In this document: one piece after another, positions 1-54,174 of the stretch
Layout: the number at the start of each line of letters is the position of its first letter
Position numbering within the stretch: position 1 is the first letter of the stretch
NCBI GenBank assembly: GCA_019428855.1
Contig: JAHYJV010000004.1
Coordinates: forward strand, 1-54,187
Reading direction: 5' to 3'
From: Patescibacteria group bacterium
Lineage (GTDB): Bacteria; Patescibacteriota; Minisyncoccia; JAHIHE01; JAGLIN01
Length of the DNA stretch: 54,187 nucleotides
Position numbers and translations under genes: made by a program
Notes under the pieces: generated by a model
Databases searched by the model: none
Told to the model about the DNA's origin: nothing
The model's input: the letters and a program-made list of their open reading frames with translations, nothing else

Positions 1-81
1 GCTATGATTTTAGCAATCGCTTTTGCTGAAGCCATCGCAATTTATGCCTTGGTTGTTGCTCTTATTATTAAATTCGTTTAA
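1..81 (+). CDS. atpE: F0 ATP synthase subunit c, C-terminal fragment (5' end outside window)
   Basis: Frame 1 reads AMILAIAFAEAIAIYALVVALIIKFV*, the second helix of a c-subunit including the ion-binding Glu (AFAEAI). The rest of the atp operon follows. Confidence 0.85.
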   Translation, partial: AMILAIAFAEAIAIYALVVALIIKFV

Positions 82-93
82 TAATCATTCAGT

Positions 94-119
94 CAAAAGA
101 GAAAGTAATTTCTCTTTTG
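94..119 (+). terminator. Stem-loop just after atpE (attenuator or stabiliser; no clear U-tract)
   Basis: caaaagagaaa-gtaa-tttctcttttg forms an 11-bp perfect stem 13 nt after the atpE stop. Confidence 0.35.
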
Positions 120-145
120 GGGTGTGAGTATTAGAATATTTGTAC

Positions 146-436
146 TTTGAAAATTGGAAATTAGGTTTTGGAGATAGTCCAAATAAAATAAAGAGAAGAG
201 TGATAATATTGAGTCGATTTAAATTCTACGATATAGTGCTAAATTTAGGATTGCATATGTTAAAAACAAATTCATTTAGTCCCATCAGTGCTACGATTGC
301 ATTTATTTTGTTTGTGACATTAGTAATAATTTTATATCGCTAAAAAAAGAATTGGAAAGCGAAAATAAAGCAAAAAAGCACGACTAAAAAGAAATATTTG
401 ATTTAATCTTTATTTCAAAACCTATTTTCTAATTTA
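146..436. repeat. Inverted-repeat-flanked element, family 2 (degenerate copy), in the atpE-atpF spacer
   Basis: The left arm tttgaaaattggaaattaggttttgga pairs imperfectly with the right arm ttcaaaacctattttctaattt. The arms resemble those of the 4236-4514 element. Confidence 0.45.
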
Positions 437-473
437 TTTACAAAATTAAAAAACTTTAAATTAATATAAATTT

Positions 474-971
474 ATGCCAGAAATATTTGATAAATTAGGA
501 CTTAATCCTAAACTACTTGTTGCTCAAGCTGTTAATTTTGTTTTGCTGTTGGTAATCTTGCAAAAAATTGGATATAAACCAATTTTGAAAATGCTCAACG
601 ACCGAACTGAAAAGATTGAAAAAAGCCTCAAACAAGCTAAAAAGATTGAAGAAGAGCTGAAAAATACAGAAGAGACAAAGATTGCCGAAATTAAAAAGGC
701 AAAACTTGAATCACAGGAAATTATCAAAGAAGCGAATGAAGTTGCAGAGAAAAAATCACTAGAAATGATTGAAAGAACTAGGGCAAAAACTCAAGAAATT
801 GTAGCAGATGCAAAACAAGAAATTCAAGCTGAAAAAGAATCTTCTATCAAAGAAGCAAAACAAGAAATCGCTAATATATCAATTCAAATTGCCAAAAAAA
901 TAATCGGTAATAATTTTGATGAAGATAAAGAAAAAGAATCGGTGAATGAAATTCTGGCAAAGATAAAATAA
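474..971 (+). CDS. atpF: F0 ATP synthase subunit b
   Basis: 165 aa with an N-terminal TM helix (LLVAQAVNFVLLLVILQKIG) followed by a long Lys/Glu-rich helix. Its position in the atp operon fits. Confidence 0.85.
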   Translation: MPEIFDKLGLNPKLLVAQAVNFVLLLVILQKIGYKPILKMLNDRTEKIEKSLKQAKKIEEELKNTEETKIAEIKKAKLESQEIIKEANEVAEKKSLEMIERTRAKTQEIVADAKQEIQAEKESSIKEAKQEIANISIQIAKKIIGNNFDEDKEKESVNEILAKIK

Positions 972-990
972 ATAAGCTTTCCTTATTTTC

Positions 991-1122
991 TGTCATTCCG
1001 AAATCAGCGATAGCGAGTGAGGAATCTCTGAACTTTCTAAATTTCACCTAGACTTATATTATTTTCTTTTATAATTTTATCTATAAATTTCTCACCTTCG
1101 TTCCTCAAGTTCGAAATGACAA
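991..1122. repeat. Palindromic TGTCAT-type element (family 1)
   Basis: Termini tgtcattccgaaat ... tcgaaatgacaa are inverted repeats. The interior carries gcgagtgaggaatctc-type motifs. It lies between atpF and atpH. Confidence 0.6.
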
Positions 1123-1159
1123 TTTTTATTGTAAAAAAACATTATAAAATATACTAAAT

Positions 1160-1552
1160 ATGAAAATTACACCTAAACAATATGCCATTAGCTTATACGA
1201 ATCAACACTAAAGATTGATAAGGTTCAAGCTGAACAAAGAATTGGAAATTTCATCGAAATTCTGAGAAAAAATAACGATCTTTCTTTAATTGAGAAAATC
1301 ATTGAACAATATTATAAATATTACAGAGAGCAAAGTAACATCTCAAAAATTCAAGTTACAAGTGCGAAAAAATTAAACCCAGAAATTTTAAATAAGATCA
1401 TCCAAAAGTTTAATAAGCAAATTGAGATTGAAGAAATTATTGATGAATCGCTAATTGGTGGATTTGTCCTCCGAGTAGATGACAATCTTTTGATTGATGG
1501 TAGTGTGAAAAAGAAACTCGAAAACCTCAAAAAGAATATAACTAAAGTTTAA
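1160..1552 (+). CDS. atpH: F1 ATP synthase subunit delta (OSCP), short form
   Basis: 130 aa. The C-terminal LIGGFVLRVDDNLLIDGSVKKKL matches the delta/OSCP signature. Operon position fits. Confidence 0.8.
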   Translation: MKITPKQYAISLYESTLKIDKVQAEQRIGNFIEILRKNNDLSLIEKIIEQYYKYYREQSNISKIQVTSAKKLNPEILNKIIQKFNKQIEIEEIIDESLIGGFVLRVDDNLLIDGSVKKKLENLKKNITKV

Positions 1553-1576
1553 TTTTAAAATCATAATTTAAATAAA

Positions 1577-3073
1577 ATGAATAGTCATATTATCGAAAAT
1601 TTAAAACAACAAATTGCACAAACAAAACTTGAAACTCAAGTTGAAAAAGTTGGCAAGGTTGTCAAAATTGCTGACGGTGTTGCAACCCTCAACGGTCTGA
1701 CAGAAGTTATGAGTGGCGAACTTCTGGAATTTCCAAATAACATTTTTGGTGTTGCCTTGAATCTTGAAGAAGACAGTATCGGAGCGATGATTCTGGGAAA
1801 TTATCTGAAAATTAAGGAAGGAGATGTTGTCAAAAGCACTGGAAGAATTATGGAGGTTCCAGTTGGTGAGAACATGATTGGCCGCGTTGTAAATGCCCTC
1901 GGTGTACCAATTGACGGCAAGGGTGAAATCAAAACCGATAAATTCTATCCAGTTGAAAATACGGCTCCTGGAGTTATCACCAGAAAATCAGTAGATACTC
2001 CCCTTGCAACAGGAATCAAGGCAATTGATTCCATGATTCCAATCGGACGAGGTCAAAGAGAATTGATTATTGGGGACCGACAAACTGGAAAAACAGCGAT
2101 TGCGATTGATACAATTATTAACCAAAAAGGTAAAGGTGTGACTTGTATCTATGTTGCCATTGGACAAAAAGAATCAAAAGTTGCCAAAATTGTGGCCAAA
2201 CTGAAAGAAAGTGGAGCAATGGAACATACAATTATTGTTCTGGCTGGTGCTTCAGATCCGGCTTCAATGTCATATATCGCACCATATACTGGTTGCGCAA
2301 TTGGAGAATATTTTATGGATCAAAATCAAGATGCTTTAATTGTCTTTGATGATTTAAGTAAGCATGCTTGGGCTTATAGACAAGTTTCGTTGATTTTGCG
2401 AAGGCCGCCAGGACGAGAAGCATATCCTGGAGATATTTTCTATCTTCATTCTAGATTATTGGAAAGAGCGGCGAAGCGTGATGAAAAATATGGCGGTGGT
2501 TCCTTGACTGCCTTACCAATTATTGAAACTCAAGCCGGAGATGTTAGTGCTTATATTCCAACAAATGTCATCTCAATTACAGATGGTCAGATTTTCTTAG
2601 AAACAGATTTATTCTATCAAGGGATTAGACCAGCGATTAATCCTGGAATTTCAGTTTCTCGTGTGGGATCTGCTGCTCAAACCAAGGCCATGAAAAAAGT
2701 GGCTGGAAAACTCAGACTTGAACTTGCTCAATTTCGGGAGTTAGCCGCCTTTGCACAATTTTCATCTGACCTCGACAAAGAAACCAAAGAGAGAATTGAA
2801 AGAGGAAAAAGATTAGTAGAGGTTCTTAAACAAGGTCAATATGATCCTATGGAAACAGAAGACCAAGTTGCGATAATTTTTGCAACCATTAATGGATTTC
2901 TAGACGAGGTGGCAGTTGAAAAAGTGAAAGATTTTGAAAGAGATATGCTGGACTTTTTAAGAGACAAGAATGCTCATATACTTGAAGATATCGCCAAAGA
3001 AGGAAAAATATCCGATGAAACTGAAAAAGATTTGAAAGAAGCAATTAAGGAATTCAAAGAGAAACAAGTGTAA
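1577..3073 (+). CDS. atpA: F1 ATP synthase subunit alpha
   Basis: 498 aa with Walker A GDRQTGKT, plus [26 protein letters not shown] and ITDGQIFLE. Confidence 0.97.
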
Positions 3074-3111
3074 AGACAATATGGCAATATAACAATTTAG
3101 CAATTTATCTT

Positions 3112-4008
3112 ATGCAATCCACACAACAAATCAGAAGACAAATTCAATCAACCCAAAACACCTCGCAAATCACCAAAGCGATGGAAATGGTTGCTGCTTC
3201 CAAGATGAAAAAATCTCAGCAAGCTGCTCTTTTGGCCCGTCCTTATGCCGAAGCAGCTTTGAATATTTTGCAAAGTGTCAGCGAATCAGTTGAGCCAACG
3301 AAGCACTGCTTGCTTGAAAATCGAGAAGTTCATAATTTATGCCTAGTTGTTGTCACATCTGACAAAGGTCTTTGTGGCGGATTCAATGGTAATGTTCTCA
3401 AAGAAGCAGAAAAAATTGTCAACGCCAATGAAAATAAAAGCATCTCTATCATCGCTATTGGCAAAAAAGCTGAAACTTATTTCAAAAAAAGAAATGACAT
3501 ATCTGCTGTTTTCAATGGTATTGGAGATACAGTGGAACTTCGTGAAACACTGCCGATTTCAAAACTTTTGATTAACGAATTTACAGAAAAAAAATATGAT
3601 GGAATAGTAGCTGTTTATAATAATTACATTTCAACAATCAAACAAGATGTGAAGGTGAAAAAACTTTTACCAATAACTAGAAGAAGCCTAGAAGAAACAG
3701 TTGAAGAAATTGAAGACATGACCAAGAGCGAACACAAAGAAAATAATGGTGTTGATTATACTTTTGAGCCATCTGCTTCCAAAGTTTTGTGCGCCCTACT
3801 TCCAAATCTTGTGGAAACGCAAGTTTATCATGTCATCCTTGAATCAAATGCCTCAGAACATAGTGCCCGCATGGTGGCCATGAAGAACGCCACTGACAAC
3901 GCTAAAGAAATGCTTGGTGATTTGAAATTATTATATAACTATATCAGACAACAAAAAATTACTCAGGAAATCAGTGAAATTTCAGCCGGAGTTGCTGCAC
4001 AGGAATAA
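3112..4008 (+). CDS. atpG: F1 ATP synthase subunit gamma
   Basis: 298 aa. Gamma hallmarks are the N-terminal IRRQIQSTQNTSQITKAMEMVAASKMKK and the C-terminal RQQKITQEISEISAG. Confidence 0.93.
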   Translation: MQSTQQIRRQIQSTQNTSQITKAMEMVAASKMKKSQQAALLARPYAEAALNILQSVSESVEPTKHCLLENREVHNLCLVVVTSDKGLCGGFNGNVLKEAEKIVNANENKSISIIAIGKKAETYFKKRNDISAVFNGIGDTVELRETLPISKLLINEFTEKKYDGIVAVYNNYISTIKQDVKVKKLLPITRRSLEETVEEIEDMTKSEHKENNGVDYTFEPSASKVLCALLPNLVETQVYHVILESNASEHSARMVAMKNATDNAKEMLGDLKLLYNYIRQQKITQEISEISAGVAAQE

Positions 4009-4010
4009 AC

Positions 4011-4216
4011 TTGTCATTCTGAGCTTGACTCAGAATCCTTCGTCTATAACAATAAGTCAATCCCATAAATCACCGAACATTAACATAAAAAGAAAATATA
4101 ACAATTATCTTAAACGAAAAATCAACTGTGTTTGTACTGTAGATGAACGAATGTTGAAAGCTAAACAAACTAAGACATAACATCAAAAAGATTCTGAATT
4201 AAGTTCAGAATGATAA
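4011..4216. repeat. Palindromic TGTCAT-type element (family 1)
   Basis: The left end ttgtcattctgagcttgactcagaatcc and the right end attctgaattaagttcagaatgataa each fold into a hairpin. The outer termini are inverted repeats. Confidence 0.6.
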
Positions 4217-4235
4217 ATATAAATGTACATTAAAA

Positions 4236-4514
4236 TTTGAAAATTGAGTTTTGGAATATATTTCAATAATAATGAAAGATATTGATGAAGCGATCTAAAT
4301 ACGATTATGGTTTAAAAAAAGAAATAAAGAAACTATGGAAATAGTATATAATCAGAAGTTTAAAAATAAAATTTAAAAAAGCAGCGGAAAATCTCGTAAG
4401 AATGAAAGGAGAGGTGAGTTCGAAAAAATTTGGAATAGCTCATCTTCGCTACGAACTAAAACAACTAGAAGAAGGAAGTTAAGACAACTTCCTTTCCAAA
4501 ACTCAATTTTTAAA
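4236..4514. repeat. Inverted-repeat-flanked element, family 2
   Basis: tttgaaaattgagttttggaa (4236-4256) matches the reverse complement of ttccaaaactcaatttttaaa (4494-4514) at 20 of 21 positions. An internal 9-bp hairpin is aaggaagtt/aacttcctt. Confidence 0.6.
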
Positions 4515-4599
4515 TACTATTTTGGAGTTCACCCTCCAGGGTCTAAATCAAGTGCTTGCTTGCAGAATGAAGGGCAGACTCCAGCGATATAAAAAATAA

Positions 4600-6000
<1,401 letters not shown>

Positions 6001-6063
6001 AATCATATCTTACTAACTGACCAATTTAATAAATTTGATTCTTCGAGTATAAAATAAAAGAAT

Positions 6064-6474
6064 ATGAAAATAAACCTACAAGTCATAACTCCCGAAAAAA
6101 TTGCTTTTCAAGGTGAAGCTGATGGTGTTTCGATTCCCACAAAAAGCGGAGAAATTACAGTTTTAGCTAATCACATTCCCATAATCAGCACGATGAAACA
6201 TGGCGAGCTTGTCATTCGTAATGGCAAAGAAGAAATTTATATGGCGGTTTGTAACGGCTTTATCGAAGTGAAAAAGAATTGTGTCATTGTGATGACTGAC
6301 ATTGCAGAAAGAATTGCTGAAATTGATGAAGAAAAAGCGATAGAAGCGAAAGAAAAAGCCAAGAAACTTCTTTTTGAAAAAGACCGTCTTTCCGACCTTG
6401 CTTTTGCTGACACCACGGCTATGCTTGAAAAATCTCTGGCTAGAATCAAGGTTGCCAGAAGAAAGAGGAGATAA
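6064..6474 (+). CDS. atpC: F1 ATP synthase subunit epsilon
   Basis: 136 aa. The N-terminal LQVITPEKIAFQGEADGVSIPTKSGEITVLANHIP beta-sandwich and a C-terminal helical hairpin fit epsilon. It is the last atp gene. Confidence 0.9.
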   Translation: MKINLQVITPEKIAFQGEADGVSIPTKSGEITVLANHIPIISTMKHGELVIRNGKEEIYMAVCNGFIEVKKNCVIVMTDIAERIAEIDEEKAIEAKEKAKKLLFEKDRLSDLAFADTTAMLEKSLARIKVARRKRR

Positions 6475-24514: not shown

Positions 24515-24826
24515 TTATAAATCGCAGCCGACTCCTGCCATTTGAATTGCCTTAGTCGGACATTCTGTTTCGCAAATTCCACAACCCTTGCAATAATCCA
24601 TATCCGCATCTGTCACCCTTATTTTTTCTTTTCCATCAACAATAATTTTTTCTGTCTTAATTGCCATATCAGGACAAAATACTGCGCAACGCATACAGTC
24701 AATACATTTTTGCTTATCACGCACCGGCATTTTTGCTTTCCAGTTTCCCGTCTTAAATTCTTTTGAATTTCCCGCTTCAATTATTTTTCCCCCGATTGGG
24801 ATTTGTTTTGATGTTTTCAATTTCAT
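24515..24826 (-). CDS. porD: 2-oxoacid:ferredoxin oxidoreductase delta subunit (2x[4Fe-4S] ferredoxin-like)
   Basis: 103 aa with CIDCMRCAVFCPD and CKGCGICETECP. It lies immediately downstream of the gamma subunit. Confidence 0.85.
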   Translation of the reverse strand: MKLKTSKQIPIGGKIIEAGNSKEFKTGNWKAKMPVRDKQKCIDCMRCAVFCPDMAIKTEKIIVDGKEKIRVTDADMDYCKGCGICETECPTKAIQMAGVGCDL

Positions 24827-24870
24827 AAATTATTAACTTAAATATTTTATTTTTTATTTTTTTTGAAAAT

Positions 24871-39058: not shown

Positions 39059-39533
39059 AACAAGATTTTAAAATAAAAAAATATACCTCTAAATTGTCAT
39101 AAATTTATTTTCATTTATAACTATTTAAGCTTATGTATATTATACCACTATATTTAAATGTGACAAAGACCAAACACAAACAAAATACCTGATTCAATAA
39201 TGATTTAAATTATTCAATATTGTGCAAAAAATACCCCAAATAAATATTTGAAGTACTAATTTTAGACTTTATATGTTTATTTTATTTTTTCAAATAATCA
39301 CAATCACCATTCCATTCTTTAAGGTGTACCCCTTGTCAAGACAGTAATATTTGTTGAATTAGGTGGATTTTTAAGTTTAAAAATTAGTAAAACTATACAA
39401 AAACCGACCATGCTCTTGGCGAAAACAACTAGCACCGATTCCTTTTGTATTTTATTTAATGTCATATAATTGTTTTATTGAATTATATTAAAACCATTGA
39501 CTTATTTATCTCAAATTATAAAGTGAATTAAAA

Positions 39534-39591
39534 TTGTCATGGTGAGCTTGTCGAACTATATCGTTGTCCATTCGACAAGCTCAGGATAACA
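39534..39591. repeat. Compact TGTCAT-type palindromic element (family 1)
   Basis: ttgtcatggtGAGCTTGTCGAActatatcgttgtccaTTCGACAAGCTCaggataaca, with a 12-bp perfect stem. Confidence 0.65.
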
Positions 39592-39654
39592 TTATGGATT
39601 AATTTATCATAACAAATAAAGTTAAATTATATTATAACACTGTTTAATTATATA

Positions 39655-39690
39655 TCAAAAAAAATACCCCACTCATAAAGTAAGGGTATT
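39655..39690 (-). terminator. Intrinsic terminator of the Ehr-like operon
   Basis: The minus strand reads aataccc-(14-nt loop)-gggtatt followed by a T8 run, about 20 nt after the stop of the large-subunit gene. Confidence 0.6.
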
Positions 39691-39710: not shown

Positions 39711-41276
39711 TTATCTGTCGTAACCAGAATAGGAAAGATTAAAACTTTTGTTGATAAGCGGAAAATCGAGTAGTACACTTCCAACTGCAACATGTGGTAA
39801 GACTGACCAATTCAAAAATGATGCGTCGCGAGCTTGAACTCTGCTAATTTTTCCCTCATTATCTGTAGCGACAAAATAGACAATGCTACCCCGCCATCCT
39901 TCAGCAATTCCGATTGCCAAAGAATTTTTCTTGAAATTTGAAATTGAAGAAGTCTTGATTTCTCCTGCTGGCAATTCATTTAAGGCTTGATATATCAAAC
40001 TAAATGAGGAAGACACTTCTTTGACTCGAACCATAAATCTTGCATAAACATCGCCCTCTTTTTCAATTGCAATTGAAAGATTCAACTTTGAATAAGCGGC
40101 ATAGGAAAAATTGATTCTGGCATCAGATAAGATTCCAAGAGCCTTGGCTGAGACACCGCAAACTCCATGATCTTTGGCAATTTGAGAATCCATAGAACCA
40201 GTCCCCTTCAAGCGATTAATCAGCGAACTACTATCTAAAGCAATATTTATAAACTCTTTAAAATCTTTTTCAATTTCTTTTAGTTTAGAAGTTATTTCCA
40301 TTAAATCTGAAATTTCTTTTTTCACACCACCGATTGTGTTCACGCCTCGCAGAAAACGGCTGTCCGTCAATCGTTGATTAATTTGCATAATCATTTCTCT
40401 CAATCTTGCTCCATTACTTCCACCAAAGCTAAACCCAGCATCAAGCATAATAAAACCGATATCGTTGAAGTGATTTGCAATTCTTTCGAGTTCGGCAAAA
40501 ATAACTCGTAAATATTTCGCTCGAAGAGGAGCGGAAATGTCACCTATCAATTCCAAAGATTGACAAAAAGCGAGTGAATGACCGAAAGAACTATCGCCAG
40601 ATATTCTTTCTGAAAGAGCTATTTTCTTTTCCAAGGGCAGAACTTCAAAAAGTTTTTCGCTTCCCTTGTGAGTATAACCCAAAAGTGGTTCAAGATTTAT
40701 TATTTCTTCTCCAAGCATACTGAAGCGGAAATGACCCGGTTCAATTATTCCAGCATGCACTGGACCGACTGGAACTTCATAAATTCCCTCACCTCCAACC
40801 CTCTTAAATCGATGTGATTTTTCATGAGCCATTTCAATTTTTTTATTCCACGGGAAATCTTTTCTCAAAGGAAAAACATTTGCAGGCCAGTTTTCATGCA
40901 AAAGAACTTTTTCTGGATAATAATGACCAACTATCTGAAGTCCGAACATCGTCATAATTTCTCGCTCATACCAAGAAGTTTCATGAATGACCTTTACGAG
41001 TGATGGAAATTCTTCGGTATTTTGCAATTTGAGATATGGAACCAAAAAGAACTTTTCCCCTGGCAATCCAAAGACATAAAAAATTTTAAAAGAGTTATTT
41101 TCTTTTCTTTCGTCTATGGCTGTCATCGTCATTAGAGTCATCTTGTCTGCAAAATAAAGTTTCTGACAAACAGTTTCAATTTCGCTGACAGACACCTCAA
41201 AAAGAAGAAGATTATTTTTCTCTTCTACGGAACTTTGAGTAGGAATATATTTTTCAATTAATTCTTGTTTATTCAT
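39711..41276 (-). CDS. Fused NuoC-like + NuoD/HycE-like large subunit of a group-4-hydrogenase-related complex, lacking all NiFe cysteines
   Basis: 521 aa. The N-terminal half shows a 30-kDa/NuoC-type fold (WYEREIMTMFG). The large-subunit motifs read ERISGDSSFGHSLAFCQSLE (canonical R-x-C-G-x-C) and, at the C-terminus, NLSYSGYDR* (canonical D-P-C-x-x-C-x-x-R). Confidence 0.88.
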   Translation of the reverse strand: MNKQELIEKYIPTQSSVEEKNNLLLFEVSVSEIETVCQKLYFADKMTLMTMTAIDERKENNSFKIFYVFGLPGEKFFLVPYLKLQNTEEFPSLVKVIHETSWYEREIMTMFGLQIVGHYYPEKVLLHENWPANVFPLRKDFPWNKKIEMAHEKSHRFKRVGGEGIYEVPVGPVHAGIIEPGHFRFSMLGEEIINLEPLLGYTHKGSEKLFEVLPLEKKIALSERISGDSSFGHSLAFCQSLELIGDISAPLRAKYLRVIFAELERIANHFNDIGFIMLDAGFSFGGSNGARLREMIMQINQRLTDSRFLRGVNTIGGVKKEISDLMEITSKLKEIEKDFKEFINIALDSSSLINRLKGTGSMDSQIAKDHGVCGVSAKALGILSDARINFSYAAYSKLNLSIAIEKEGDVYARFMVRVKEVSSSFSLIYQALNELPAGEIKTSSISNFKKNSLAIGIAEGWRGSIVYFVATDNEGKISRVQARDASFLNWSVLPHVAVGSVLLDFPLINKSFNLSYSGYDR

Positions 41277-41285
41277 AATTGAGAT

Positions 41286-42740
41286 TTAAGAAAATAATTT
41301 AACAGAATTCAAAATCAAGGATTGTAAAAATGGCGGAATAACAAATCCGATACAGAAGAGAATAATAACAATCATAATCAAAGGGGAAATAGATAAGCCA
41401 TGTTCTTCCTCATTTATAATCCCAGCAGGAACTTCTCCAAAAAGCATAGTAGAAATATGTTTCATAAAACCTACAAAAGCAATTGCCAAACCAATAATTG
41501 CGAATGTCACAATAATAGGATGAGCTGAGATTCCGGCAGAGAGAATATAAAACTCAGTCAGAAATATTCCAAAAGGAGGCATGCCGATTATCGATAATAT
41601 TCCAGCAATAAACAGAATGCTTGTGATTGGTAAAGCAGTTAGAGTTCCTCTGACATCTGCAATTTTGGTTGAATTATATTTCAAAAATATATTTCCAGCA
41701 GAAAGAAAAAGAAGTGATTTAGTAAGAGCATGATATACCATATGAAGTAGTGCCGCATAAATTCCGATTCCACCAAATCCAAAGCCTAAAGTGATAAGAC
41801 CCATGTGTTCGATACTGGAATAGGCCAAAAGCCGCTTATAGTTTTGTGACACCGAAATCATAAACCCAGCGAAAAGAATTGAAATCATACCAAAAAATAA
41901 CATCAGGTTTTGTGTAAATTGCGGATCTATGGAAGTGTCTATCACAATTTTAAAACGCAAAATTGAATAAAGAGCGACATTTAAAAGCACACCAGATAAT
42001 AAACTACTAATTGGAACTGGTGCCTTGGAATGAGCATCAGGAAGCCAGGTATGCATGGGCACCAAGCCCATCTTTGTGCCATAACCAACTAAAAGGAAAA
42101 CGAAAGCAATCTTGATAACCGCAGGATTAAGACTAGAAGATAGTAATAGAATATCCTGCCATGTCACGAATCCCCCAATTGTCTCGTGAAGAGAAATTGA
42201 AGCTAAAAATATTAGCGTTCCCAAGAATGCCAATAGCAACCCAACTGAATTTATAACTAAATATTTCCAAGCTGCCTCAATTGAAGTTTTCTTGCTATAA
42301 AAACTAATTAAAAAAGCTGTTGAAAGAGTTGTTGCTTCAACTGCAACCCACATTAAAATTGGACTGGCAACCTGCACGGCGAATAGCATCGTAAAAAGAA
42401 AAGAGTGCAATAAAATATGATATTGTCGAACGCGACTAAAACCGATAGTCCCATTCTTAACCTCCGCACGCAAATATCCGATAGAATACACTGAAGCTGT
42501 AAAGCCAACGATTGCTATAATTAAAAGTAATATTGCTCCCAAGGAATCAACAAAAAAATATGGTGCCAATGAAGATGAGCCGTTCTCAAGAACAGTATAT
42601 ATTATTTTTGCCACCGTAAAAAATTCAATTACTGTCGCCAATAAAATAATATATTCCAAAAAGACTTGCTGTTTTCGTTTCACGAAAAAAGACGAAATTG
42701 CTGCTATAGCTGGAGTGAGAATAAGAATTAGTATTTCCAT
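41286..42740 (-). CDS. HyfF/NuoN/MrpD-like antiporter-type membrane subunit
   Basis: 484 aa, about 14 TM helices, with HTWLPDAHSKAPVPISSLLSGVLLNVALY. Confidence 0.88.
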   Translation of the reverse strand: MEILILILTPAIAAISSFFVKRKQQVFLEYIILLATVIEFFTVAKIIYTVLENGSSSLAPYFFVDSLGAILLLIIAIVGFTASVYSIGYLRAEVKNGTIGFSRVRQYHILLHSFLFTMLFAVQVASPILMWVAVEATTLSTAFLISFYSKKTSIEAAWKYLVINSVGLLLAFLGTLIFLASISLHETIGGFVTWQDILLLSSSLNPAVIKIAFVFLLVGYGTKMGLVPMHTWLPDAHSKAPVPISSLLSGVLLNVALYSILRFKIVIDTSIDPQFTQNLMLFFGMISILFAGFMISVSQNYKRLLAYSSIEHMGLITLGFGFGGIGIYAALLHMVYHALTKSLLFLSAGNIFLKYNSTKIADVRGTLTALPITSILFIAGILSIIGMPPFGIFLTEFYILSAGISAHPIIVTFAIIGLAIAFVGFMKHISTMLFGEVPAGIINEEEHGLSISPLIMIVIILFCIGFVIPPFLQSLILNSVKLFS

Positions 42741-42760
42741 ATTTTTTTAATCTTTAATCT

Positions 42761-43417
42761 TTAATCTTGCAATTTTTTTATTTCAGAAATGTTAAGAGAG
42801 CCAAAATTTTTATAAACCATTGAGATAAACACTACCGCAATCACAATCCAAACAGAAATATCAAAAAGAATACCAAGCTCGAGAACCAAAGTCTGTTTAA
42901 TTTCAATCAAAAAGGCAAAAGAGATAATACTATTTTCAAGATAAAGTATACCAATAATTTGAGAAAGCGCTCCGCGTCGATTGATTATCAAAAAAATTGA
43001 AGATAAAATACTTGCTATGGCAAACGGAATGGTCTTGTCCACTTTTTCTGACAGAGAAATGAGAACCTCAAAAACAGATGAATTGGCAAAAATCACAATA
43101 AACATCACAACGAAGAGAGTGACAGGAGTAGAAAGATATGAACTTGCTGATGATTTTACTTGATTATTATTAATCAGCTTCAAAAAGAAACGAGGTGCGA
43201 TAATGACTTTTACCAAAAACATAATGATGGCCGTTACAAGAAGAGTAATTGAAGATTCGGAATAGGAAATTAAAATCAGCATCAAAAAAACCACCGTAGA
43301 TTGAAGAAGATAGAACAAAACAAGATTCTTGTTTTTCTTTACCATCTGCGAAAAAACAACAATCAAGAATATGATAATTTCGGCAAAAAATAGAAATTGT
43401 AGAATTGAATAATCCAT
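42761..43417 (-). CDS. HyfE-like small membrane subunit
   Basis: 218 aa, about 7 TM helices. Size and position match HyfE of hydrogenase-4-type operons. Confidence 0.7.
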   Translation of the reverse strand: MDYSILQFLFFAEIIIFLIVVFSQMVKKNKNLVLFYLLQSTVVFLMLILISYSESSITLLVTAIIMFLVKVIIAPRFFLKLINNNQVKSSASSYLSTPVTLFVVMFIVIFANSSVFEVLISLSEKVDKTIPFAIASILSSIFLIINRRGALSQIIGILYLENSIISFAFLIEIKQTLVLELGILFDISVWIVIAVVFISMVYKNFGSLNISEIKKLQD

Positions 43418-43426
43418 ATATCTTAT

Positions 43427-44356
43427 TTAAATTACGGTTATTATAATGGCAATCATCCCCAAAACAAGTGAGGTCAAAAGCAAATCTGGAAGTCGAAAAA
43501 ATCTCAATTTCGCAATGGTTGATTCAAGGACAGCGATGCTTACTGCCATGACTAATATTTTTATCAAAAATAAAATCAAAGCAATCGCAACTGGCACGAT
43601 TTCAACATTTTGAGCAATTCCCCAAGGGAAAAATATACTTGTTCCTAAAGAAATAAAGATCAGAAGCTTGTTAGCCGCTGCCCACTCAACGAGTGCCAAT
43701 CTTTTTCCGGAATATTCCAAAATCATTGCTTCATGAATCATAGTCAGTTCAAGATGAGTAGCAGGATTATCAAATGGATATCGAGCACATTCCGCCAAAA
43801 GAGCAATATAAAAAGCAATAAATGCGATTACAACTGGTGCCAACATAGAGAATGGAACAACGGAAATAGCGTTGACCATTTCAGAAATATTGGCAGTTTT
43901 GGCAAGTAAAGCAACTGAGAACAACGAAAATATTAATCCACCTTCAGTCAAAGCAGCCACAGTCATTTCTCGGCTTGATCCCGTTCCCCCAAAAACACTT
44001 CCTGTATCCAAGCCAGCCAAGGCCAAGAAAAAAGTTCCAAGAGCAATCAAATAAACAAAGAGTAAGAAATCGCCCAAAGGAGAAAAAGTTGCCATGGTGC
44101 TGATCATCGGGATACCAGCTGAAATGACAATTGTGACGGCAAACAAAAGATATGGTGTGTAGCGAAAAATCCAAGAAGCAGTTTCAGAAATTACTTCATC
44201 CTTATGGAACAATTTCCAAAGATCACGATATGGCTGAAAAATACTCGCTCCTTGACGATTCTGAAATCGCGCTTTTATTTTTCTGATAATACCAACAATT
44301 AAAGGAGAAAGTCCCGGAATTAAAAGTGCTTGAAATATAAATAGTATGATTGACAT
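43427..44356 (-). CDS. HycD/HyfC/NuoH-like membrane subunit
   Basis: 309 aa, polytopic, with RKIKARFQNRQGASIFQPYRDLWKLF (typical NuoH/HycD N-terminal loop) and ECARYPFDNPATHLEL. Confidence 0.85.
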   Translation of the reverse strand: MSIILFIFQALLIPGLSPLIVGIIRKIKARFQNRQGASIFQPYRDLWKLFHKDEVISETASWIFRYTPYLLFAVTIVISAGIPMISTMATFSPLGDFLLFVYLIALGTFFLALAGLDTGSVFGGTGSSREMTVAALTEGGLIFSLFSVALLAKTANISEMVNAISVVPFSMLAPVVIAFIAFYIALLAECARYPFDNPATHLELTMIHEAMILEYSGKRLALVEWAAANKLLIFISLGTSIFFPWGIAQNVEIVPVAIALILFLIKILVMAVSIAVLESTIAKLRFFRLPDLLLTSLVLGMIAIIITVI

Positions 44357-44360
44357 TTTT

Positions 44361-46397
44361 TTATCGAGTTACCAAAATAAGTAAAATCACAATTGTGATA
44401 AGGATATATAAAAGATAAAAATTAACAATACCACATTGAATCCTCCTTAAGAAATTTGCAATTTTATATACAAAATTACTAATAGGACAATATAAATATT
44501 TGTTATATAGGTCATTCATTCTTAAACTAACAGTACTAGATTTGGTAAAATATTTTATATTTGAATCGTCATATTCTCTGTTAATTTGTTTAGTAGGTTT
44601 CAAAATTCCACTAAAAATCATTACGATTGACCTTGAAAAACTGGTTGCTGTAATTTCCATTCGTGGGGTTAGATTCCCTCCACAATCCCAAGTTGAATAA
44701 ATTTTTTCTTTCTGTCTTCGACTAATCCAATTAAAGAAAATAAATGAGAATACAAAAGTAAGAAGCAATGCTATTAAAACTGGAATTATTGCCAGAGAAG
44801 AAGAATTATTCTGTGTATGGAAAGTTATTCCTTCAACCAATACAAGCGAAATACCAGCAAAAATACTCAGACTTCCAGCAAGAGATTCCAAATATGGGAT
44901 TACGAAAATAGAAAATACTCCCAAGGCAAGACATGCCAAGGAAAGAACAGCCATTGGTAAACGAAGTAAAAGTGATGATTCTTTGGCATTTTCACTTTTT
45001 TGACTTCGCGGTTTTGCCAAAAAAGTAATTCCAAAGGCCTTCACGAAACAAGCAGCAGCAAGCCCACCTGTCAAAGCAAGAGATGCAATGCCAAAAATAA
45101 AAACACCTTTTGTAAAAATATCAAACTGCATCACTCCTAAAAAAAGAGCTTGAAAAGTCAGCCACTCGCTTACAAATCCATTAAAAGGAGGAAGAGCTGA
45201 AATTGAAATAGCACCTACTAGGAAAAATAAAGCTGTCTGAGGCATTATTTTTATCAATCCTCCGTATTCTTCAATATTTCTTGTACGAGTTGCGAGCACA
45301 ACTGAACCTGCCCCCAAGAAAAGGAGAGACTTGAAAATGGCATGATTCATCGTATGAAATAAAGCAGCGACCAAAGCTAGTAATGCGAGTGATTTCAAAT
45401 CAAAAGACAAAAATACCAAAGAACTACCAACGCCTAACAGAATTATACCGATATTTTCAACGCTGTGATAAGCAAGTAATTTTTTAATATCATGCTCACT
45501 AATGGCATAAAGAACTCCAAGAAGAGAAGAAATAGCACCGACAATAATAATCAACAATCCAAACCATAGAGGTGTAATTGGAATAACATCAAAGAATAAT
45601 CTTATCAGCATCAAAATTCCTGTTTTAATCATCACTCCAGACATAATCGCTGAAACTTGAGATGGTGCTGCTGGGTGAGCCTTCGGAAGCCAAATATGCA
45701 AAGGAATGATTCCAGCCTTAGTTCCAAATCCTGCTAACATCAGTAAAGATACAATCGAAATCCAAAAAGATGGCAAGCTTGAAACATTTTCGCGAATTAC
45801 ATCAAAATCAAAAGATCCTAAAAAGCTATACAAAATTAAAAAAGCTAACAGTATTCCACCTGTAGCAATATGTGTCATAATAAAATATAAAAATCCAGCC
45901 TTGATACTCTCCTTATGTTTATGTTCAAAAATCACGAGAAAATATGAAGTCAAGGACATAATTTCCCAAACAAAAAGGAAATATAAAGCATTGTTCGCCG
46001 ATGCGACCAAAATCATGCTCAAAATAAAAAAATTATAAAAAAACCCGAATAAACCGAGATTGTATTCTTTATAAAATTGTCTCATATAACCAATTGCATA
46101 AATACTGCTCAAAAGAGAAACTACGGAAATTATCAAAATAAAAAAAGCAGAAAGCATATCGATTTTCACATTGACTGGCAATAGTGAAAAAGTTAAGGGC
46201 AATTGCAAAGTATAAATATTATTATATAGCAAAACATTTCCGGATAATAAAATTCCAAATAATGAGCCAAGAGCAGCACAGGAATTTGCCCACCAGTTTG
46301 CCATATTATTATTTCGCCGAAAAAGAAGTGAGCCAATTGAACCCAGGACGAAAATTCCAGCTAAAATAAAAAATTCTTTTTGTAGTAATAGACCCAT
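44361..46397 (-). CDS. HyfB/HycC/NuoL-like antiporter-type membrane subunit
   Basis: 678 aa with HIWLPKAHPAAPSQVSAIMSGVMIKTG. Confidence 0.88.
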   Translation of the reverse strand: MGLLLQKEFFILAGIFVLGSIGSLLFRRNNNMANWWANSCAALGSLFGILLSGNVLLYNNIYTLQLPLTFSLLPVNVKIDMLSAFFILIISVVSLLSSIYAIGYMRQFYKEYNLGLFGFFYNFFILSMILVASANNALYFLFVWEIMSLTSYFLVIFEHKHKESIKAGFLYFIMTHIATGGILLAFLILYSFLGSFDFDVIRENVSSLPSFWISIVSLLMLAGFGTKAGIIPLHIWLPKAHPAAPSQVSAIMSGVMIKTGILMLIRLFFDVIPITPLWFGLLIIIVGAISSLLGVLYAISEHDIKKLLAYHSVENIGIILLGVGSSLVFLSFDLKSLALLALVAALFHTMNHAIFKSLLFLGAGSVVLATRTRNIEEYGGLIKIMPQTALFFLVGAISISALPPFNGFVSEWLTFQALFLGVMQFDIFTKGVFIFGIASLALTGGLAAACFVKAFGITFLAKPRSQKSENAKESSLLLRLPMAVLSLACLALGVFSIFVIPYLESLAGSLSIFAGISLVLVEGITFHTQNNSSSLAIIPVLIALLLTFVFSFIFFNWISRRQKEKIYSTWDCGGNLTPRMEITATSFSRSIVMIFSGILKPTKQINREYDDSNIKYFTKSSTVSLRMNDLYNKYLYCPISNFVYKIANFLRRIQCGIVNFYLLYILITIVILLILVTR

Positions 46398-46403
46398 AGA
46401 TTT

Positions 46404-46940
46404 TTATTTCTTTTCAGACTCCCTCTCTAGCGATTTTAAAATTTCCAGTAATGCGCACAACACTCTTTTGGGAGATGGGGGGTCTCCAGGAATTTGAAAA
46501 TCAACTGGAATTACTTTTTCTACTCCGTCCATAACCGCATATGATCCTTTGAAAATTCCGCCATCAATCGCATCGTCCCCTACTGCCACTACAAATTTGG
46601 GCTCAGGCGTGGCTTCATATGTCTTCCGAAGAGCAACTGCCATATTTCGAGAAACAGGTCCCGTTACCAAAAGCATATCTGCATGTCTAGGTGAAGCAAC
46701 AAAATGAATTCCAAATCGTTCGACATCATAGAAAGAATTCCCAAGCGCTGTCAGCTCCTGTTCGCAAGCATTAGAAGAGCCGGCATCAACTTCTCGAATA
46801 GCAAGAGAACCACGAAACAATTTCTTTATTTTTTCGCTCAATTCCTTACTGATAAGCTTGATATCCTTTTCCTTATACAAATCTTCCGGCATAATCAATG
46901 TCTTCGGATTAGAAAAAGTTTTTATATAAAGACTTGGCAT
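46404..46940 (-). CDS. NuoB/HycG-like small subunit lacking three of the four [4Fe-4S] cysteine ligands
   Basis: 178 aa with ERFGIHFVASPRHADMLLVTGPV. The ligand motifs read DAGSSNACE (canonical GSCNGC), VGDDAIDGG (canonical G-x-C-A-x-x-G-G) and IPGDPPSP (canonical PGCPP). Confidence 0.88.
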   Translation of the reverse strand: MPSLYIKTFSNPKTLIMPEDLYKEKDIKLISKELSEKIKKLFRGSLAIREVDAGSSNACEQELTALGNSFYDVERFGIHFVASPRHADMLLVTGPVSRNMAVALRKTYEATPEPKFVVAVGDDAIDGGIFKGSYAVMDGVEKVIPVDFQIPGDPPSPKRVLCALLEILKSLERESEKK

Positions 46941-47136: not shown

Positions 47137-47406
47137 TCAATAGCATGTATTAGTCCAACACATTCTGGACAATAAATTATTATTAATCATATAATCCACG
47201 GGGGATTGCAAGCCCAAGTTCTCAACTACTATTTTTGTTTCTCCCTCTAAATCCCATGCAAAAGGAAAATCTCCATTAAACGCTTCAAGAAACAGAGGCC
47301 CATTTTTGTAAAAATTCAAGGAAACTTCTTCCCCTTCAACCAAGCCCTTAACCTCAGTTTCACTATTATATAAATAAACTAGGCTATAGACCATCAGAAA
47401 CTTCAT
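47137..47406 (-). CDS. Hypothetical protein
   Basis: 89-aa ORF with no recognisable family. The coding call rests on length and context only. Confidence 0.4.
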   Translation of the reverse strand: MKFLMVYSLVYLYNSETEVKGLVEGEEVSLNFYKNGPLFLEAFNGDFPFAWDLEGETKIVVENLGLQSPVDYMINNNLLSRMCWTNTCY

Positions 47407-51652: not shown

Positions 51653-51787
51653 TTATAGAAACATTACTATGGATTATTTTTATATTTTATCACAATTTAA
51701 TCAAAATAACCAATTTTGCAAAATTTAAAATTGTGCTATAATATTCTTATATTAACAAATCTTACGATAAATATCCAAATAAAAATC

Positions 51788-52762
51788 ATGAATGATAAAC
51801 AACTGCGAGGCTTCGTTTCATATCTTATCAAAAATAAACATACCGTATTTTCTCATACAGACGAAGAAGGGAAAATCAAGATAAAAAAAATAGATACTGG
51901 AAAAGATTTTACGCTTTGTCCTAAAAGACCTCTGTATTCTTTCAAAAAATTCTTTCTTCCACCCTGCCAAAAAATGATGGTTTTAAGCGATGACGAGACA
52001 ACCTTAAACAGAAATCCAAATGAAAAAATAGTTCTACTTGGGCTTCATTTTTATGATCTCAAAGCATTTACACTTATTAATCAAGTATATAGGAAGGATC
52101 CTCATTTTCAGAAAAAATTGAGAAATGCGATTGTTATCGGTCAAAGTCCAATTCCAGCTGAGCTTGAAGATTACCAAAAATTTGAAAAAGAAGTTCTCGA
52201 ACATCTCAAATTTGATATTTTTCTGGAAGCAAAATCTCACGGAAAGCAAGAATCATTCCGAATTTTTACAGGTTCAGAAGATGGACAAAGACTTTTGGAT
52301 GATTTTGGATATAGAGATTATGAAAATATTGAATATGTCGGCCCTGTTCCCAAAAAAGGTCTGGGACCAATTAATTCCATGCTAATTGAAAAAATCAAAA
52401 AATCTTGTGGTTCAAAAATTTGGAAAGAATTAGGGGAAAAATGTACTGATTGTGGAAAATGCACAATTGTTTGTCCGACTTGTTTTTGTTTTAAAATCAA
52501 GGATGAAATTAAAAAAGACGAAATCCTACGCTCTCGCGAATGGGACAGTTGTTTTTATGAGGAATTTTCCGAAATTTCAGGAGGACATAAATTTCTTGAT
52601 ACAACTGAGAAGAGAATTTATAATTATTACGACCATAAGTTTGTCAGAATACCAGAGGAATATGGAATGCCTGGGTGTATTTCGTGTGGAAGATGTACAG
52701 AGGTTTGCCCAGCAGGAATTGACATTAGAGCAGTTATAAAAAGGATTATCAAAGAGAATTAA
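51788..52762 (+). CDS. Iron-sulfur subunit, HydB (group-3b hydrogenase beta)/AsrA-like
   Basis: CTDCGKCTIVCPTCFC and CISCGRCTEVCPAGI are present. Start placed at ATG 51788 (MNDKQLRGF...), because the track's TTG 51716 extension is a low-complexity leader. Confidence 0.78.
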   Translation: MNDKQLRGFVSYLIKNKHTVFSHTDEEGKIKIKKIDTGKDFTLCPKRPLYSFKKFFLPPCQKMMVLSDDETTLNRNPNEKIVLLGLHFYDLKAFTLINQVYRKDPHFQKKLRNAIVIGQSPIPAELEDYQKFEKEVLEHLKFDIFLEAKSHGKQESFRIFTGSEDGQRLLDDFGYRDYENIEYVGPVPKKGLGPINSMLIEKIKKSCGSKIWKELGEKCTDCGKCTIVCPTCFCFKIKDEIKKDEILRSREWDSCFYEEFSEISGGHKFLDTTEKRIYNYYDHKFVRIPEEYGMPGCISCGRCTEVCPAGIDIRAVIKRIIKEN

Positions 52763-52952
52763 TTCGAGCAAATAACTGGAGTTCAGTTTTTAACCTGTAA
52801 AAAACTATTTTCTTACAATCGATTTACAATCTAAAAAGTGAACTCCGAAATAAGATAATTTAGTATAACAATGGCGATGTTAATCCTCTTGCAAGATTAC
52901 CACTAATAACATCTGTCTTAATATTGCCAATATTAATATCATAAAAATCTGC

Positions 52953-53774
52953 ATGAAAAATCAATACGAACCAATTCAAACCGAGATTGTGAAAATTGAA
53001 GAACTTTCACCTATTAATAAGCTTTTTACACTAAGAATTAAAAACGAGCAGACTCAAAATGCATTCAAGTTTCGACATGGACAATTTTTTATTCTTTCCG
53101 TTCCAGGGTTTGGCGAAGCTCCTTTTGGTTTTTGCTCAAGCCCGACAATCAAAGAAACTTTTCAAGTGTCCGTGGACAAGAGAGGAAGTCTGACTACAAA
53201 GCTTTTTGAGTTCAAAGTGGGAGCTGATATTGGAATCAGAGGTCCTTATGGTAATGGCTTTGATCGGAAAAAAATCAAAAACAGAAATCTCGTTCTCGTA
53301 GCTGGTGGATGCGGACTCTCCCCTCTGAGAACAATTATCCAAGATGCCAATCTTCATCCTGAAAATTTTCAAAATATTCAAATTTTTTATGGTTGTCGGA
53401 ATTCAGAACTCTTGGCATTCAAAAAAGATTATACTGATTGGAGTAAAAATATCGAAATAAATCTGACAGTCGATACACCAGACAAAAAATGGAAAAACAA
53501 TGTTGGCGTGGTCACAAATTTACTAACTCTAGAAAAAATCAAATCTGATTCCGTGGCAATTCTAGTCGGTCCGCCAATAATGTATAAGTTCGTCATTCAA
53601 AAACTGGTTGAACTTGGCTTGAGTGATGAGGACATCTATGTTTCACTGGAACGAAGAATGCATTGTGGGATTGGAATCTGTCAACATTGTGCCCTTGTCG
53701 GCGGAAAATATGTTTGCACCGATGGTCCCCTATTTTCCTATGCTGAGATTAAAGATACTCCTGAAGGGATTTAG
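52953..53774 (+). CDS. FAD/NAD(P)-binding [2Fe-2S] subunit, HydG (group-3b gamma)/AsrB/PyrK-like
   Basis: 273 aa with RHGQFFILSVPGFGEAPF, LVAGGCGLSPL and a C-terminal MHCGIGICQHCALVGGKYVCTDGP cluster motif. Confidence 0.82.
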   Translation: MKNQYEPIQTEIVKIEELSPINKLFTLRIKNEQTQNAFKFRHGQFFILSVPGFGEAPFGFCSSPTIKETFQVSVDKRGSLTTKLFEFKVGADIGIRGPYGNGFDRKKIKNRNLVLVAGGCGLSPLRTIIQDANLHPENFQNIQIFYGCRNSELLAFKKDYTDWSKNIEINLTVDTPDKKWKNNVGVVTNLLTLEKIKSDSVAILVGPPIMYKFVIQKLVELGLSDEDIYVSLERRMHCGIGICQHCALVGGKYVCTDGPLFSYAEIKDTPEGI

Positions 53775-53797: not shown

Positions 53798-54174
53798 ATG
53801 GAAAAAGAAAATCCGAAAACAACAAATAATCTAAAATACAGATCTTATGGATTTAGTTTAAATGTAATTAGCTTACTTGAATTGTTTCCCAAAAATTATA
53901 TTTACCAAACTATCGGCAAATAGCTATTAAGATCGGGAACTTCAATCGGAGCTAATATTATTGAAGCACAGGCAGGAAGAACAAGAAAAGATTTTTCAAA
54001 TTATTACCAAATCGCATTAAAAAGTGCGAATGAAACTAAATACTGGTTATCTATTTTAAAGAAAAAATCAAGACAAAAAAAGAAAATGATAAAATATCAG
54101 AATTACTAGAAGAACCTATTGCTATAAGCAAAATGCTCGGAGCAAGTTTGATTACTTTAAATAGCAAAAAATAA
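53798..54174 (+). pseudogene. Four-helix-bundle (23S rRNA intervening-sequence protein family) gene with an in-frame TAG and a 1-nt frameshift
   Basis: Translation reads ...LELFPKNYIYQTIGK*LLRSGTSIGANIIEAQAGRTRKDFSNYYQIALKSANETKYWLSILKK. The family-like tail IKTKKENDKISELLEEPIAISKMLGASLITLNSKK* continues in the +2 frame. TAG is at 53921-53923, and the total length of 377 nt is not a multiple of 3. Confidence 0.7.

Follow-up and report, generated by a model that had tools for sequence, protein, structure and literature searches.

How might a membrane complex built on the plan of complex I work when no site for a redox cofactor can be recognised in it? This question is raised by a six-gene operon of the energy-converting hydrogenase related (Ehr) type, found in the 54,187-nt stretch of DNA from a Patescibacteria group bacterium that was analysed here (contig JAHYJV010000004.1 of assembly GCA_019428855.1; this whole stretch is called the window below). 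Among the characterised relatives of complex I and the membrane hydrogenases we know of none that does not start ion pumping via an Fe-S cluster beside its NuoD-like subunit. Judged from its sequence, the operon is a member of an Ehr clade of the Candidate Phyla Radiation (CPR) in which the [NiFe] site, the proximal [4Fe-4S] cluster (the N2 equivalent) and the ferredoxin-like subunit all appear to have been lost.

Operon architecture

When open reading frames (ORFs) were called, six minus-strand ORFs were found head to tail over positions 46940-39711, with intergenic gaps of 6, 4, 9, 20 and 9 nt in gene order. The genes and the terminator are as follows.

46404..46940, minus strand, small subunit (S), NuoB/HycG/HyfI-like, 178 aa (Pfam Oxidored_q6, 2.6e-25)
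44361..46397, minus strand, antiporter-like subunit A, HyfB/HycC/NuoL-like, 678 aa (NCBIfam hydrogenase 4 subunit B, 2.7e-197; Pfam Proton_antipo_M)
43427..44356, minus strand, subunit B, NuoH/HycD-like membrane anchor, 309 aa (Pfam NADHdh, 4.2e-45; alignment to HycD 7z0s_D, 1.2e-49)
42761..43417, minus strand, subunit C, HyfE-like small membrane subunit, 218 aa (NCBIfam hydrogenase 4 membrane subunit, 7.5e-18)
41286..42740, minus strand, antiporter-like subunit D, HyfF/NuoM/N-like, 484 aa (NCBIfam hydrogenase 4 subunit F, 4e-133; Pfam Proton_antipo_M)
39711..41276, minus strand, large subunit (L), fused NuoC+NuoD/HycE-like, 521 aa (Pfam Complex1_30kDa and Complex1_49kDa)
39659..39685, minus strand, intrinsic-terminator-like hairpin (39685-39667) and T8 (terminator scan and direct sequence reading)

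The hairpin and T8 lie 25 nt past the stop codon of the large-subunit gene. A first-pass annotation of the window had described a packed minus-strand operon with such an end, with which the ORF, gap and terminator scans agree, and the Pfam and NCBIfam profiles returned the same gene order and families for all six genes. Subunit A scored 657 bits against the NCBIfam hydrogenase 4 subunit B model, slightly below the curated cut-off of 667. The C-terminal part of the HyfE-like subunit is NuoK/MrpC-like, with weak matches to Pfam Oxidored_q2 and to MbsG (6u8y_G), and no useful solved structural relative was found for this subunit. The six-gene set of Ehr (small, two antiporter-like, NuoH-like, HyfE-like and NuoC/D-like subunits) is therefore present in the window operon.

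Cofactor ligands of the large and small subunits

When the large subunit was aligned to Escherichia coli HycE (7z0s_E, E = 1.5e-67), the four NiFe cysteine columns were occupied by S226, S229, S515 and G518. The HycE motif R-V-C-G-I-C-G-F-A-H-S lies opposite R-I-S226-G-D-S229-S-F-G-H-S of the window, and D-P-C-Y-S-C-T-D-R lies opposite N-L-S515-Y-S-G518-Y-D-R. The alignment thus agrees with the earlier statement that all four NiFe cysteines are substituted, and the two Ni-Fe-binding CxxC motifs that are the hallmark of group 4 [NiFe] hydrogenases are absent from the window large subunit. The quinone-site Tyr of NuoD aligns with G227, and the D-Y motif of Nqo4 with S226-G227. The large subunit stops at ...S-G-Y-D-R, which corresponds to the mature HycE C-terminus, and the deposited HycE continues for 32 residues, a tail that we take to be the extension cleaved off by HycI. 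Since the window protein has no such C-terminal extension, a proteolytic maturation step is not expected.

A single-chain AlphaFold2 model of the large subunit (predicted local distance difference test, pLDDT, 82; predicted template modelling score, pTM, 0.85; inter-domain/loop region 128-204 of low confidence) had HycE as its best structural match (template modelling score 0.85), followed by E. coli NuoCD. The large subunit is thus predicted still to have a HycE-like fold, and the model, being of a single chain, says nothing on the pocket or the assembly.

In the small subunit, alignments to HycG (7z0s_G), MbhJ (6cfw_J) and NDUFS7 placed S56, C59, D123 and D153 in the [4Fe-4S] ligand columns. 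Three of the four cluster cysteines are replaced (S56, D123 and D153) and only C59 is kept, which confirms the first-pass claim column by column against solved structures. The extra tandem-Cys position of NuoB is occupied by A58 (the tandem being A58-C59), and the N2 ligands that mark NuoB of complex I are not found.

A displaced or alternative set of Cys ligands, which had been named as an outcome that would overturn these claims, was considered and rejected. The only cysteines are C59 and C162 in the small subunit and C37, C238 and C373 in the large subunit; the C59 column holds A, E, V or D in some relatives; and the alignments gave no alternative set in either subunit. The motif C-x-x-C-x-x-C-x-x-x-C is found in none of the six genes of the operon.

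Neither a HycF/HyfH/EchF-type subunit, as in group 4 hydrogenases, nor a NuoI subunit, as in complex I, is encoded in the operon. Two 2x[4Fe-4S] proteins are encoded elsewhere in the window, at 24515-24826 and 51716-52762. Both were examined as NuoI/HycF-type candidates and rejected, as the first is of the PorD type and the second is the beta subunit (HydB type) of a group 3b hydrogenase. The first-pass statement that the window has no 2x[4Fe-4S] subunit therefore stands for the NuoI/HycF type and fails as a blanket statement. The same annotation had reported no hyp, hycI or formate dehydrogenase gene; none was found among the window ORFs of at least 120 aa and two smaller ones that were scanned, a range from which small genes such as hypC would escape. 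The nearby group 3b hydrogenase implies that hyp genes are present somewhere in the genome.

Comparison across related Ehr loci

A total of 170 related loci (L numbers below) were compared, 80 from GTDB species genomes, 80 from metagenomes and 10 from exact-protein look-ups. ORFs were called in the fetched loci and then matched to the six window proteins. When a neighbour-joining tree was drawn for about 160 large subunits, a rough method without support values, the window protein grouped among Ehr and apart from true group-4 hydrogenases, in agreement with the CPR Ehr clade of PMC7304191. Ligand columns, gene set and tree together support the Ehr-type classification proposed at first pass.

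In the same tree, the window and 25 loci without cluster cysteines form a single clade. All four cluster cysteines (C-x-x-C...C...C-P-P) are kept in 105 of the 107 other Ehr loci having a small subunit; one of the two exceptions is truncated and the other (L045) has a NuoB-type tandem Cys-Cys. The window does not follow this four-cysteine rule, and its clade stands out because ordinary Ehr retain the [4Fe-4S] cluster. True NiFe relatives from the same search, with NiFe cysteines present (L016, L048, L050, L062, L065-L067, L070 and L103), also keep the cluster cysteines in nine cases out of nine.

The four ligand columns vary within the cluster-less clade, where the combinations SCDD, TCDD, DCDD, DADD, TADD, DCDN, DCGD, SEGD and TEGD were observed. 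When the small subunits were reduced to 150 representatives (50%-identity clusters), 16 full-length sequences and a few truncated ones had no cluster cysteines, and NEGD, DVES, DAAD, SAES, TDES and SVGN were found as further combinations. Most members, including the window, have two or three carboxylates at the former ligand positions, and a few have one or none (e.g. SVGN). As the replacements are variable and C59 is unconserved, there is no conserved substitute ligand set. No ferredoxin-like gene or domain was found in the operons of the cluster-less clade. In many cluster-containing Ehr the small subunit is 240-350 aa long and bears C-x-x-C-x-x-C-x-x-x-C-P motifs; in others, L and S flank a small ferredoxin gene. 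The earlier conclusion that electrons are not carried as in any characterised relative holds, given that the ligand loss is clade-wide and the replacements are unconserved.

The large-subunit pocket has a different pattern of conservation. The Ehr motif R-I-S-G-D-S-S ... L-S-Y-S-G-x-D of the window is common to about 130 Ehr loci, and in the form R-[IV]-S-G-D-[ST]-[ST] ... L-S-Y-[SA]-G-x-D it is common to cluster-less and cluster-containing Ehr, from CPR to ammonia-oxidising archaea. In the family motif table, Ehr and true hydrogenases are set apart by the four Cys positions and D228 alone. Residues S226, G227, D228, S515 and G518, together with the loop HAGIIEPGHFRF, are near-invariant throughout Ehr, and the large-subunit loop H-A-G-I-I-E-P-G-H-F-R-F is invariant in cluster-less Ehr, other Ehr and true hydrogenases.

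The six genes were found together in loci not cut by contig ends. Their order is S-A-B-C-D-L in the window, its clade and Rokubacteria, and A-B-C-D-L-S in most other loci. The nearest large-subunit homologues (56-70% identity) all come from metagenome-assembled genomes (MAGs) of CPR/Patescibacteria, namely Paceibacterota and Levy-, Uhr-, Wildermuth-, Magasanik- and Howlettbacteria. Within the clade, the mean pairwise identity is 0.62 for S, 0.57 for L, 0.61 for B, 0.55 for A, 0.52 for D and 0.46 for C. By this measure, constraint on the cap without cofactors is no weaker than on the membrane arm.

Intact copies of all six genes are present in the window and in about 30 related loci. Only in L082 is the copy fragmented, and the atp genes of that assembly are broken up as well. 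Frameshifts or stops in orthologues had been proposed as the sign of a decaying operon; with orthologues that are intact and under strong conservation, decay is rejected, and the operon appears functional by all sequence criteria available.

Some cluster-less loci carry other taxonomic labels. A contig labelled Fibrobacteria (L008:62-15703) has two Ehr-like operons, one cluster-less and one more distant, and several other cluster-less loci are in MAGs labelled Firestonebacteria, Thermoleophilia, Endomicrobiales and Bdellovibrionales. Loci under such non-CPR labels may represent either mis-binning or real transfer.

Ion-pathway residues of the membrane arm

When subunit A was aligned to HycC (7z0s_C) and MbhH, its pathway residues E145, K227, K258, H348, H352, K356 and E411 were found to be invariant in the clade and in other Ehr. 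The corresponding residues of subunit D (E135, K223, H333, H337 and K341) are invariant in the same loci, with E or K at position 396; the window has E396 and, at the position of transmembrane helix (TM) 8, N254 (alignment to MbhH and E. coli NuoM). These invariant columns correspond to the TM5 Glu, TM7 Lys, TM8 Lys, TM11 His/Lys and TM12 Glu/Lys of NuoL/M/N and HycC. The NuoH-like subunit B has ten invariant carboxylates (D117, E130, E138, E189, D196, E203, E209, E214, E224 and E278), and K70 and E161 are invariant in the HyfE-like subunit C.

Two loci on the basal branch of the cluster-less clade (L075:6594-8192 and L155:6669-8405) have a NuoH-like ORF of about 530-580 aa, and a HyfE-like gene of its own was not detected in either, which suggests that the NuoH-like and HyfE-like subunits are fused there.

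Linkage to ATP synthase and hydrogenase genes

Genes of the ATP synthase (atp) were found within 10 kb of the Ehr operon in 10 of the 26 independent clade loci with usable flanks and in none of the 135 cluster-containing loci (Fisher p = 2e-9), and the atp-linked loci are distributed over all sub-branches of the cluster-less clade. In L083/L084, atpH-A-G-D-C is followed after a 3-nt gap by the small-subunit gene. In a Saccharibacteria MAG (CAYHUB010000003; L006, 1017-13383), the six Ehr genes lie between atpG and atpD on the same strand, with gaps of 5 and 24 nt. Six other loci (L088, L096, L001, L075, L155 and L013) have atpG-D-C upstream on the same strand, L097 has atpF-A-G 1.9 kb downstream, and in L004 the Ehr genes are flanked on both sides by atp genes of the other strand. 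The tie to the F1Fo ATPase that the first-pass annotation had drawn is strengthened, as related Ehr operons are fused to atp operons or inserted in them.

Only in the sublineage of the window, in its closest relatives, does the small-subunit gene have a complete group 3b hydrogenase operon as a divergent neighbour, at a distance of about 100 nt in L085 and about 700 nt in L086/L087. Apart from atp and hydB/G, the window neighbours are not shared with related loci and no conserved partner gene emerged. A common downstream partner was also looked for and rejected, as the genes after the large subunit belong to no single family.

Just downstream of the large subunit, L088 (11727-13367) and L170 (2669-4255) encode proteins of no family with beta-carbonic-anhydrase-like motifs (CMDGR...HLFC, of the pattern C-x-D-x-R ... 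H-x-x-C, in L088; CDDGR...HGC in L170), and L011 (11576-13237) encodes a SulP/STAS anion transporter. Conservation across loci was not seen for these gene types, and the window has none of them.

Surroundings of the operon in the window

The window is AT-rich (G+C about 30-37%) and has further transport and redox genes.

1..6474, plus strand, F1Fo ATP synthase genes: C-terminal end of the c subunit, then atpF, atpH, atpA, atpG, atpD and atpC (Pfam)
13533-16229, minus strand, P-type cation-transporting ATPase (E1-E2 type, 898 aa)
51716..53774, plus strand, group 3b [NiFe] hydrogenase beta (HydB/ShyB-like) and gamma (HydG/ShyC-like) genes (Pfam, NCBIfam)

The c-subunit tail at the window start (1-78, plus strand) reads AFAEAIAIYALVV, with ...AFAEAIAIYALVVALIIKFV as its last helix; the first helix lies outside the window. 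In the segment A-F-A-E-A-I-A-I-Y no Ser/Thr follows the ion-binding Glu, and this last helix therefore suggests a rotor that is proton-coupled rather than sodium-coupled.

The group 3b hydrogenase genes, which the first-pass annotation missed, are divergent from the Ehr operon and lie 4.8 kb upstream of it. At 53798-54100 (plus strand), where hydD/hydA would be expected (as in L086), there is instead an ORF of the four-helix-bundle ('23S rRNA intervening sequence') type that carries a stop codon in frame at 53921-53923, after which the window ends. PorC(gamma)/PorD(delta)-type genes of a 2-oxoacid:ferredoxin oxidoreductase are present at 24515-25440 (minus strand) without adjacent porA/porB, next to UvrC-like and DUF389 genes. 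The window also carries ackA, pduL and glycolytic genes; pgk comes directly downstream of the Ehr operon and gapdh lies upstream of it.

Just upstream of the operon is a gene for a DUF2207 membrane protein (47564-49621, minus strand; 685 aa) with a long Ser/Ala/Gly-rich tail ending in poly-Gly, which is not beside Ehr in related loci. An 89-aa ORF upstream (47137-47406) belongs to no family and has no counterpart in related loci. The Ehr terminator and pgk are separated by a 650-nt gap, in which an inverted repeat was found at 39521-39605 (perfect 13-nt core TGAGCTTGTCGAA / TTCGACAAGCTCA, 15-nt spacer, 35-nt arms 74% complementary). Two strong promoter-like sites are present in the same gap (39658-39631 and 39166-39139, minus strand). 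Rfam gave no match anywhere in the window, including the inverted repeat.

Proposed function and alternative explanations

Our preferred reading, to which we give a probability of roughly 45%, is that the operon encodes a redox-independent ion translocator, that is, a gradient-driven cation/proton exchanger or converter working with the F1Fo enzyme. The first-pass annotation had offered a translocator of this kind, and the idea gains comparative support from the atp linkage; its function we infer, as we do the movement of ions without redox chemistry, the identity of the ion and the direction. Since there is no Ni-Fe, Fe-S or ferredoxin-module site, the energy input would not be electron transfer through the complex. 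Energy would then come either from gradients across the membrane, as it does in Mrp, or from events at the cap that involve no redox step, and Mrp-style cation/proton exchange is the leading idea.

In such a scheme, a fermenter would make its ATP from glycolysis and acetate kinase, hydrolysis by the ATPase would build a proton gradient, and the Ehr complex would spend this gradient on sodium extrusion or on pH/ion homeostasis. The reverse direction is possible, with the Ehr complex converting another gradient for F1Fo. The NuoB/NuoCD cap would serve as a conformational gate instead of an electron input. More speculatively, the carboxylates that most members have in the N2 pocket would sit where complex I has its redox-switchable negative charge, and the cap could sense protonation or cation binding.

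Several observations weigh against a gradient-driven exchanger tied to F1Fo. The atp operon of the window lies 33 kb from the Ehr operon on the opposite strand, and 16 of the 26 clade loci have no adjacent atp gene. The group 3b hydrogenase neighbour in the window's sublineage keeps a redox partner conceivable. Mrp has no NuoB/NuoD cap, and the window operon has neither the small Mrp subunits MrpE, F and G nor the MrpB part of MrpA. Finally, the equal conservation of the cap and the sharing of S226/G227/D228/S515/G518 with cluster-containing Ehr would fit a ligand or chemistry of another kind better than a mere plug.

A more far-reaching form, which we regard as unlikely, would make the cap the working site of a new coupling. 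The complex would then be a complex-I-type machine switched by protonation, a cation or a non-redox ligand at the former N2/NiFe pocket, now occupied by carboxylates and a conserved Ser/Asp motif, and an ancestral F1Fo partner in CPR, possibly setting, converting or regulating the ion gradient.

The cap is also central to the first rival explanation, in which non-redox chemistry or sensing at the Ser/Asp pocket (binding or turnover of a small molecule, e.g. an inorganic-carbon or protonation reaction) drives ion translocation or is driven by it, as in DabAB and the CO2-hydrating CupA-NDH-1. The near-invariance of the five pocket residues and the loop in all Ehr, and a cap conserved as strongly as the membrane arm, are what such chemistry would leave. 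However, the loop and the residues surrounding the pocket are invariant in true hydrogenases too, and the conservation may therefore reflect conformational coupling only; moreover, the pocket has no conserved His/Cys set typical of metal binding. The genes downstream in L088, L170 and L011 are suggestive, but they are neither conserved nor present in the window, and the carbonic-anhydrase-like motif matches are short with no family model behind them. We therefore consider this explanation doubtful.

Quite unlikely, in our opinion, is a redox-driven pump in which a docking partner (the group 3b hydrogenase, ferredoxin reduced by the 2-oxoacid:ferredoxin oxidoreductase, or another protein) passes electrons to a substrate in the Ser/Asp pocket with no intrinsic cluster. 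The divergent hydrogenase of L085 and L086/L087, which is 4.8 kb upstream in the window, the PorC/PorD-type genes, and a pocket motif (R-[IV]-S-G-D-[ST]-[ST] ... S-Y-[SA]-G) shared with the Ehr that keep the cluster are all consistent with it. The hydrogenase neighbourhood is nevertheless limited to one sublineage, whereas the atp linkage is clade-wide, and there is no conserved up- or downstream partner gene. Such a pump would also have to do without a ferredoxin-like subunit and with the full set of cluster ligands gone from the whole clade and replaced by unconserved residues. From general knowledge of complex I and hydrogenase structures, the pocket would be too deep for direct tunnelling without a relay.

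That what remains is only the decaying or non-functional relic of a hydrogenase/Ehr operon, as the loss of all cofactor ligands might suggest, is highly improbable in view of the six intact genes in the window and about 30 loci, the 56-70% identity across CPR phyla, the invariant functional residues of the membrane arm, and the tight operon-like spacing with a terminator.

Novelty and significance

To our knowledge as set out at the start, pumping in this superfamily begins at an Fe-S cluster; a widespread and conserved clade with the whole architecture and no cofactor site is thus a natural experiment on the coupling between cap and membrane arm. A CPR clade of Ehr without NiFe cysteines is already published (PMC7304191). 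In that work, Jaffe et al. 2020 described CPR sequences that were monophyletic inside the Ehr references, had no metal-binding cysteines and 'likely cannot interact with H2', with no mention of ATP synthase, antiporters or protons. The first-pass annotation was unaware of this publication and of the fact that ordinary Ehr keep the [4Fe-4S] cluster. The cluster-less small subunit and the atp linkage of CPR Ehr were described in no paper found in the literature searched. The complete absence of cofactor sites across the clade, the conservation of the cap, the invariance of the ion-pathway residues and the atp linkage are, with respect to that literature, new here.

CPR/Patescibacteria nearly all keep an F-type ATP synthase without having a respiratory chain, which has been stated to be an open question (PMC11665869). 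An evident candidate for the ATP synthase's missing partner in CPR is a complex-I-like translocator whose genes are recurrently part of the atp operon.

Comparison with known systems

The closest system is Ehr itself, reportedly named by Marreiros et al. 2013. The window has the same six genes, a large subunit without NiFe cysteines and the S-G-D...S-Y-S-G motif. Later papers quote Ehr as group-4-hydrogenase relatives without Ni-Fe ligands and with no assigned function (PMC6349859, PMC4758237, PMC10284858, PMC10432482, PMC12342949), and this is still so in papers of 2023-2025. Ordinary Ehr (Nitrospira, Acidobacteria, Verrucomicrobia, Rokubacteria, ammonia-oxidising archaea and Firmicutes) keep the small-subunit cysteines and many add 2x[4Fe-4S], whereas the window clade has neither. 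Linkage to the atp operon, in turn, is found in the window clade only and not in other Ehr.

Hyc, the formate hydrogenlyase 1 (FHL-1) of E. coli (PDB 7Z0S), supplies the best sequence or fold matches for four subunits (HycE, HycG, HycC and HycD), and Hyf (FHL-2) supplies the best NCBIfam models for the other membrane subunits (HyfB, HyfE and HyfF). In contrast to both, the window operon lacks the NiFe ligands, the small-subunit [4Fe-4S] cluster, HycF/HyfH, HycB/HyfA, formate dehydrogenase and the HycI extension, and no hyp gene was found in the window.

As far as we know, all characterised members of complex I, MBH (membrane-bound hydrogenase) and MBS (membrane-bound sulfane reductase) keep both a cluster beside the NuoD-like subunit and a NuoI-like subunit. 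The core of NuoB, NuoC/D, NuoH and antiporter-like subunits is common to the window operon, complex I and Pyrococcus MBH/MBS (PDB 4HEA, 6CFW, 6U8Y; reviewed in PMC8165549), but the window operon has neither the NuoD-adjacent cluster nor the NuoI-like subunit.

Mrp (PDB 6Z16, 7QRU, 7D3U) works without a redox cofactor. Its two NuoL-type subunits share their Glu/Lys/His chain with those of the window, and its NuoK/MrpC-like element is matched in the window. In place of MrpE, F and G and the MrpB-like part of MrpA, the window operon has a NuoH-like subunit and the NuoB/NuoCD cap, both of which Mrp lacks. By analogy, the operon most likely works most like Mrp, yet it is not a member of the Mrp family.

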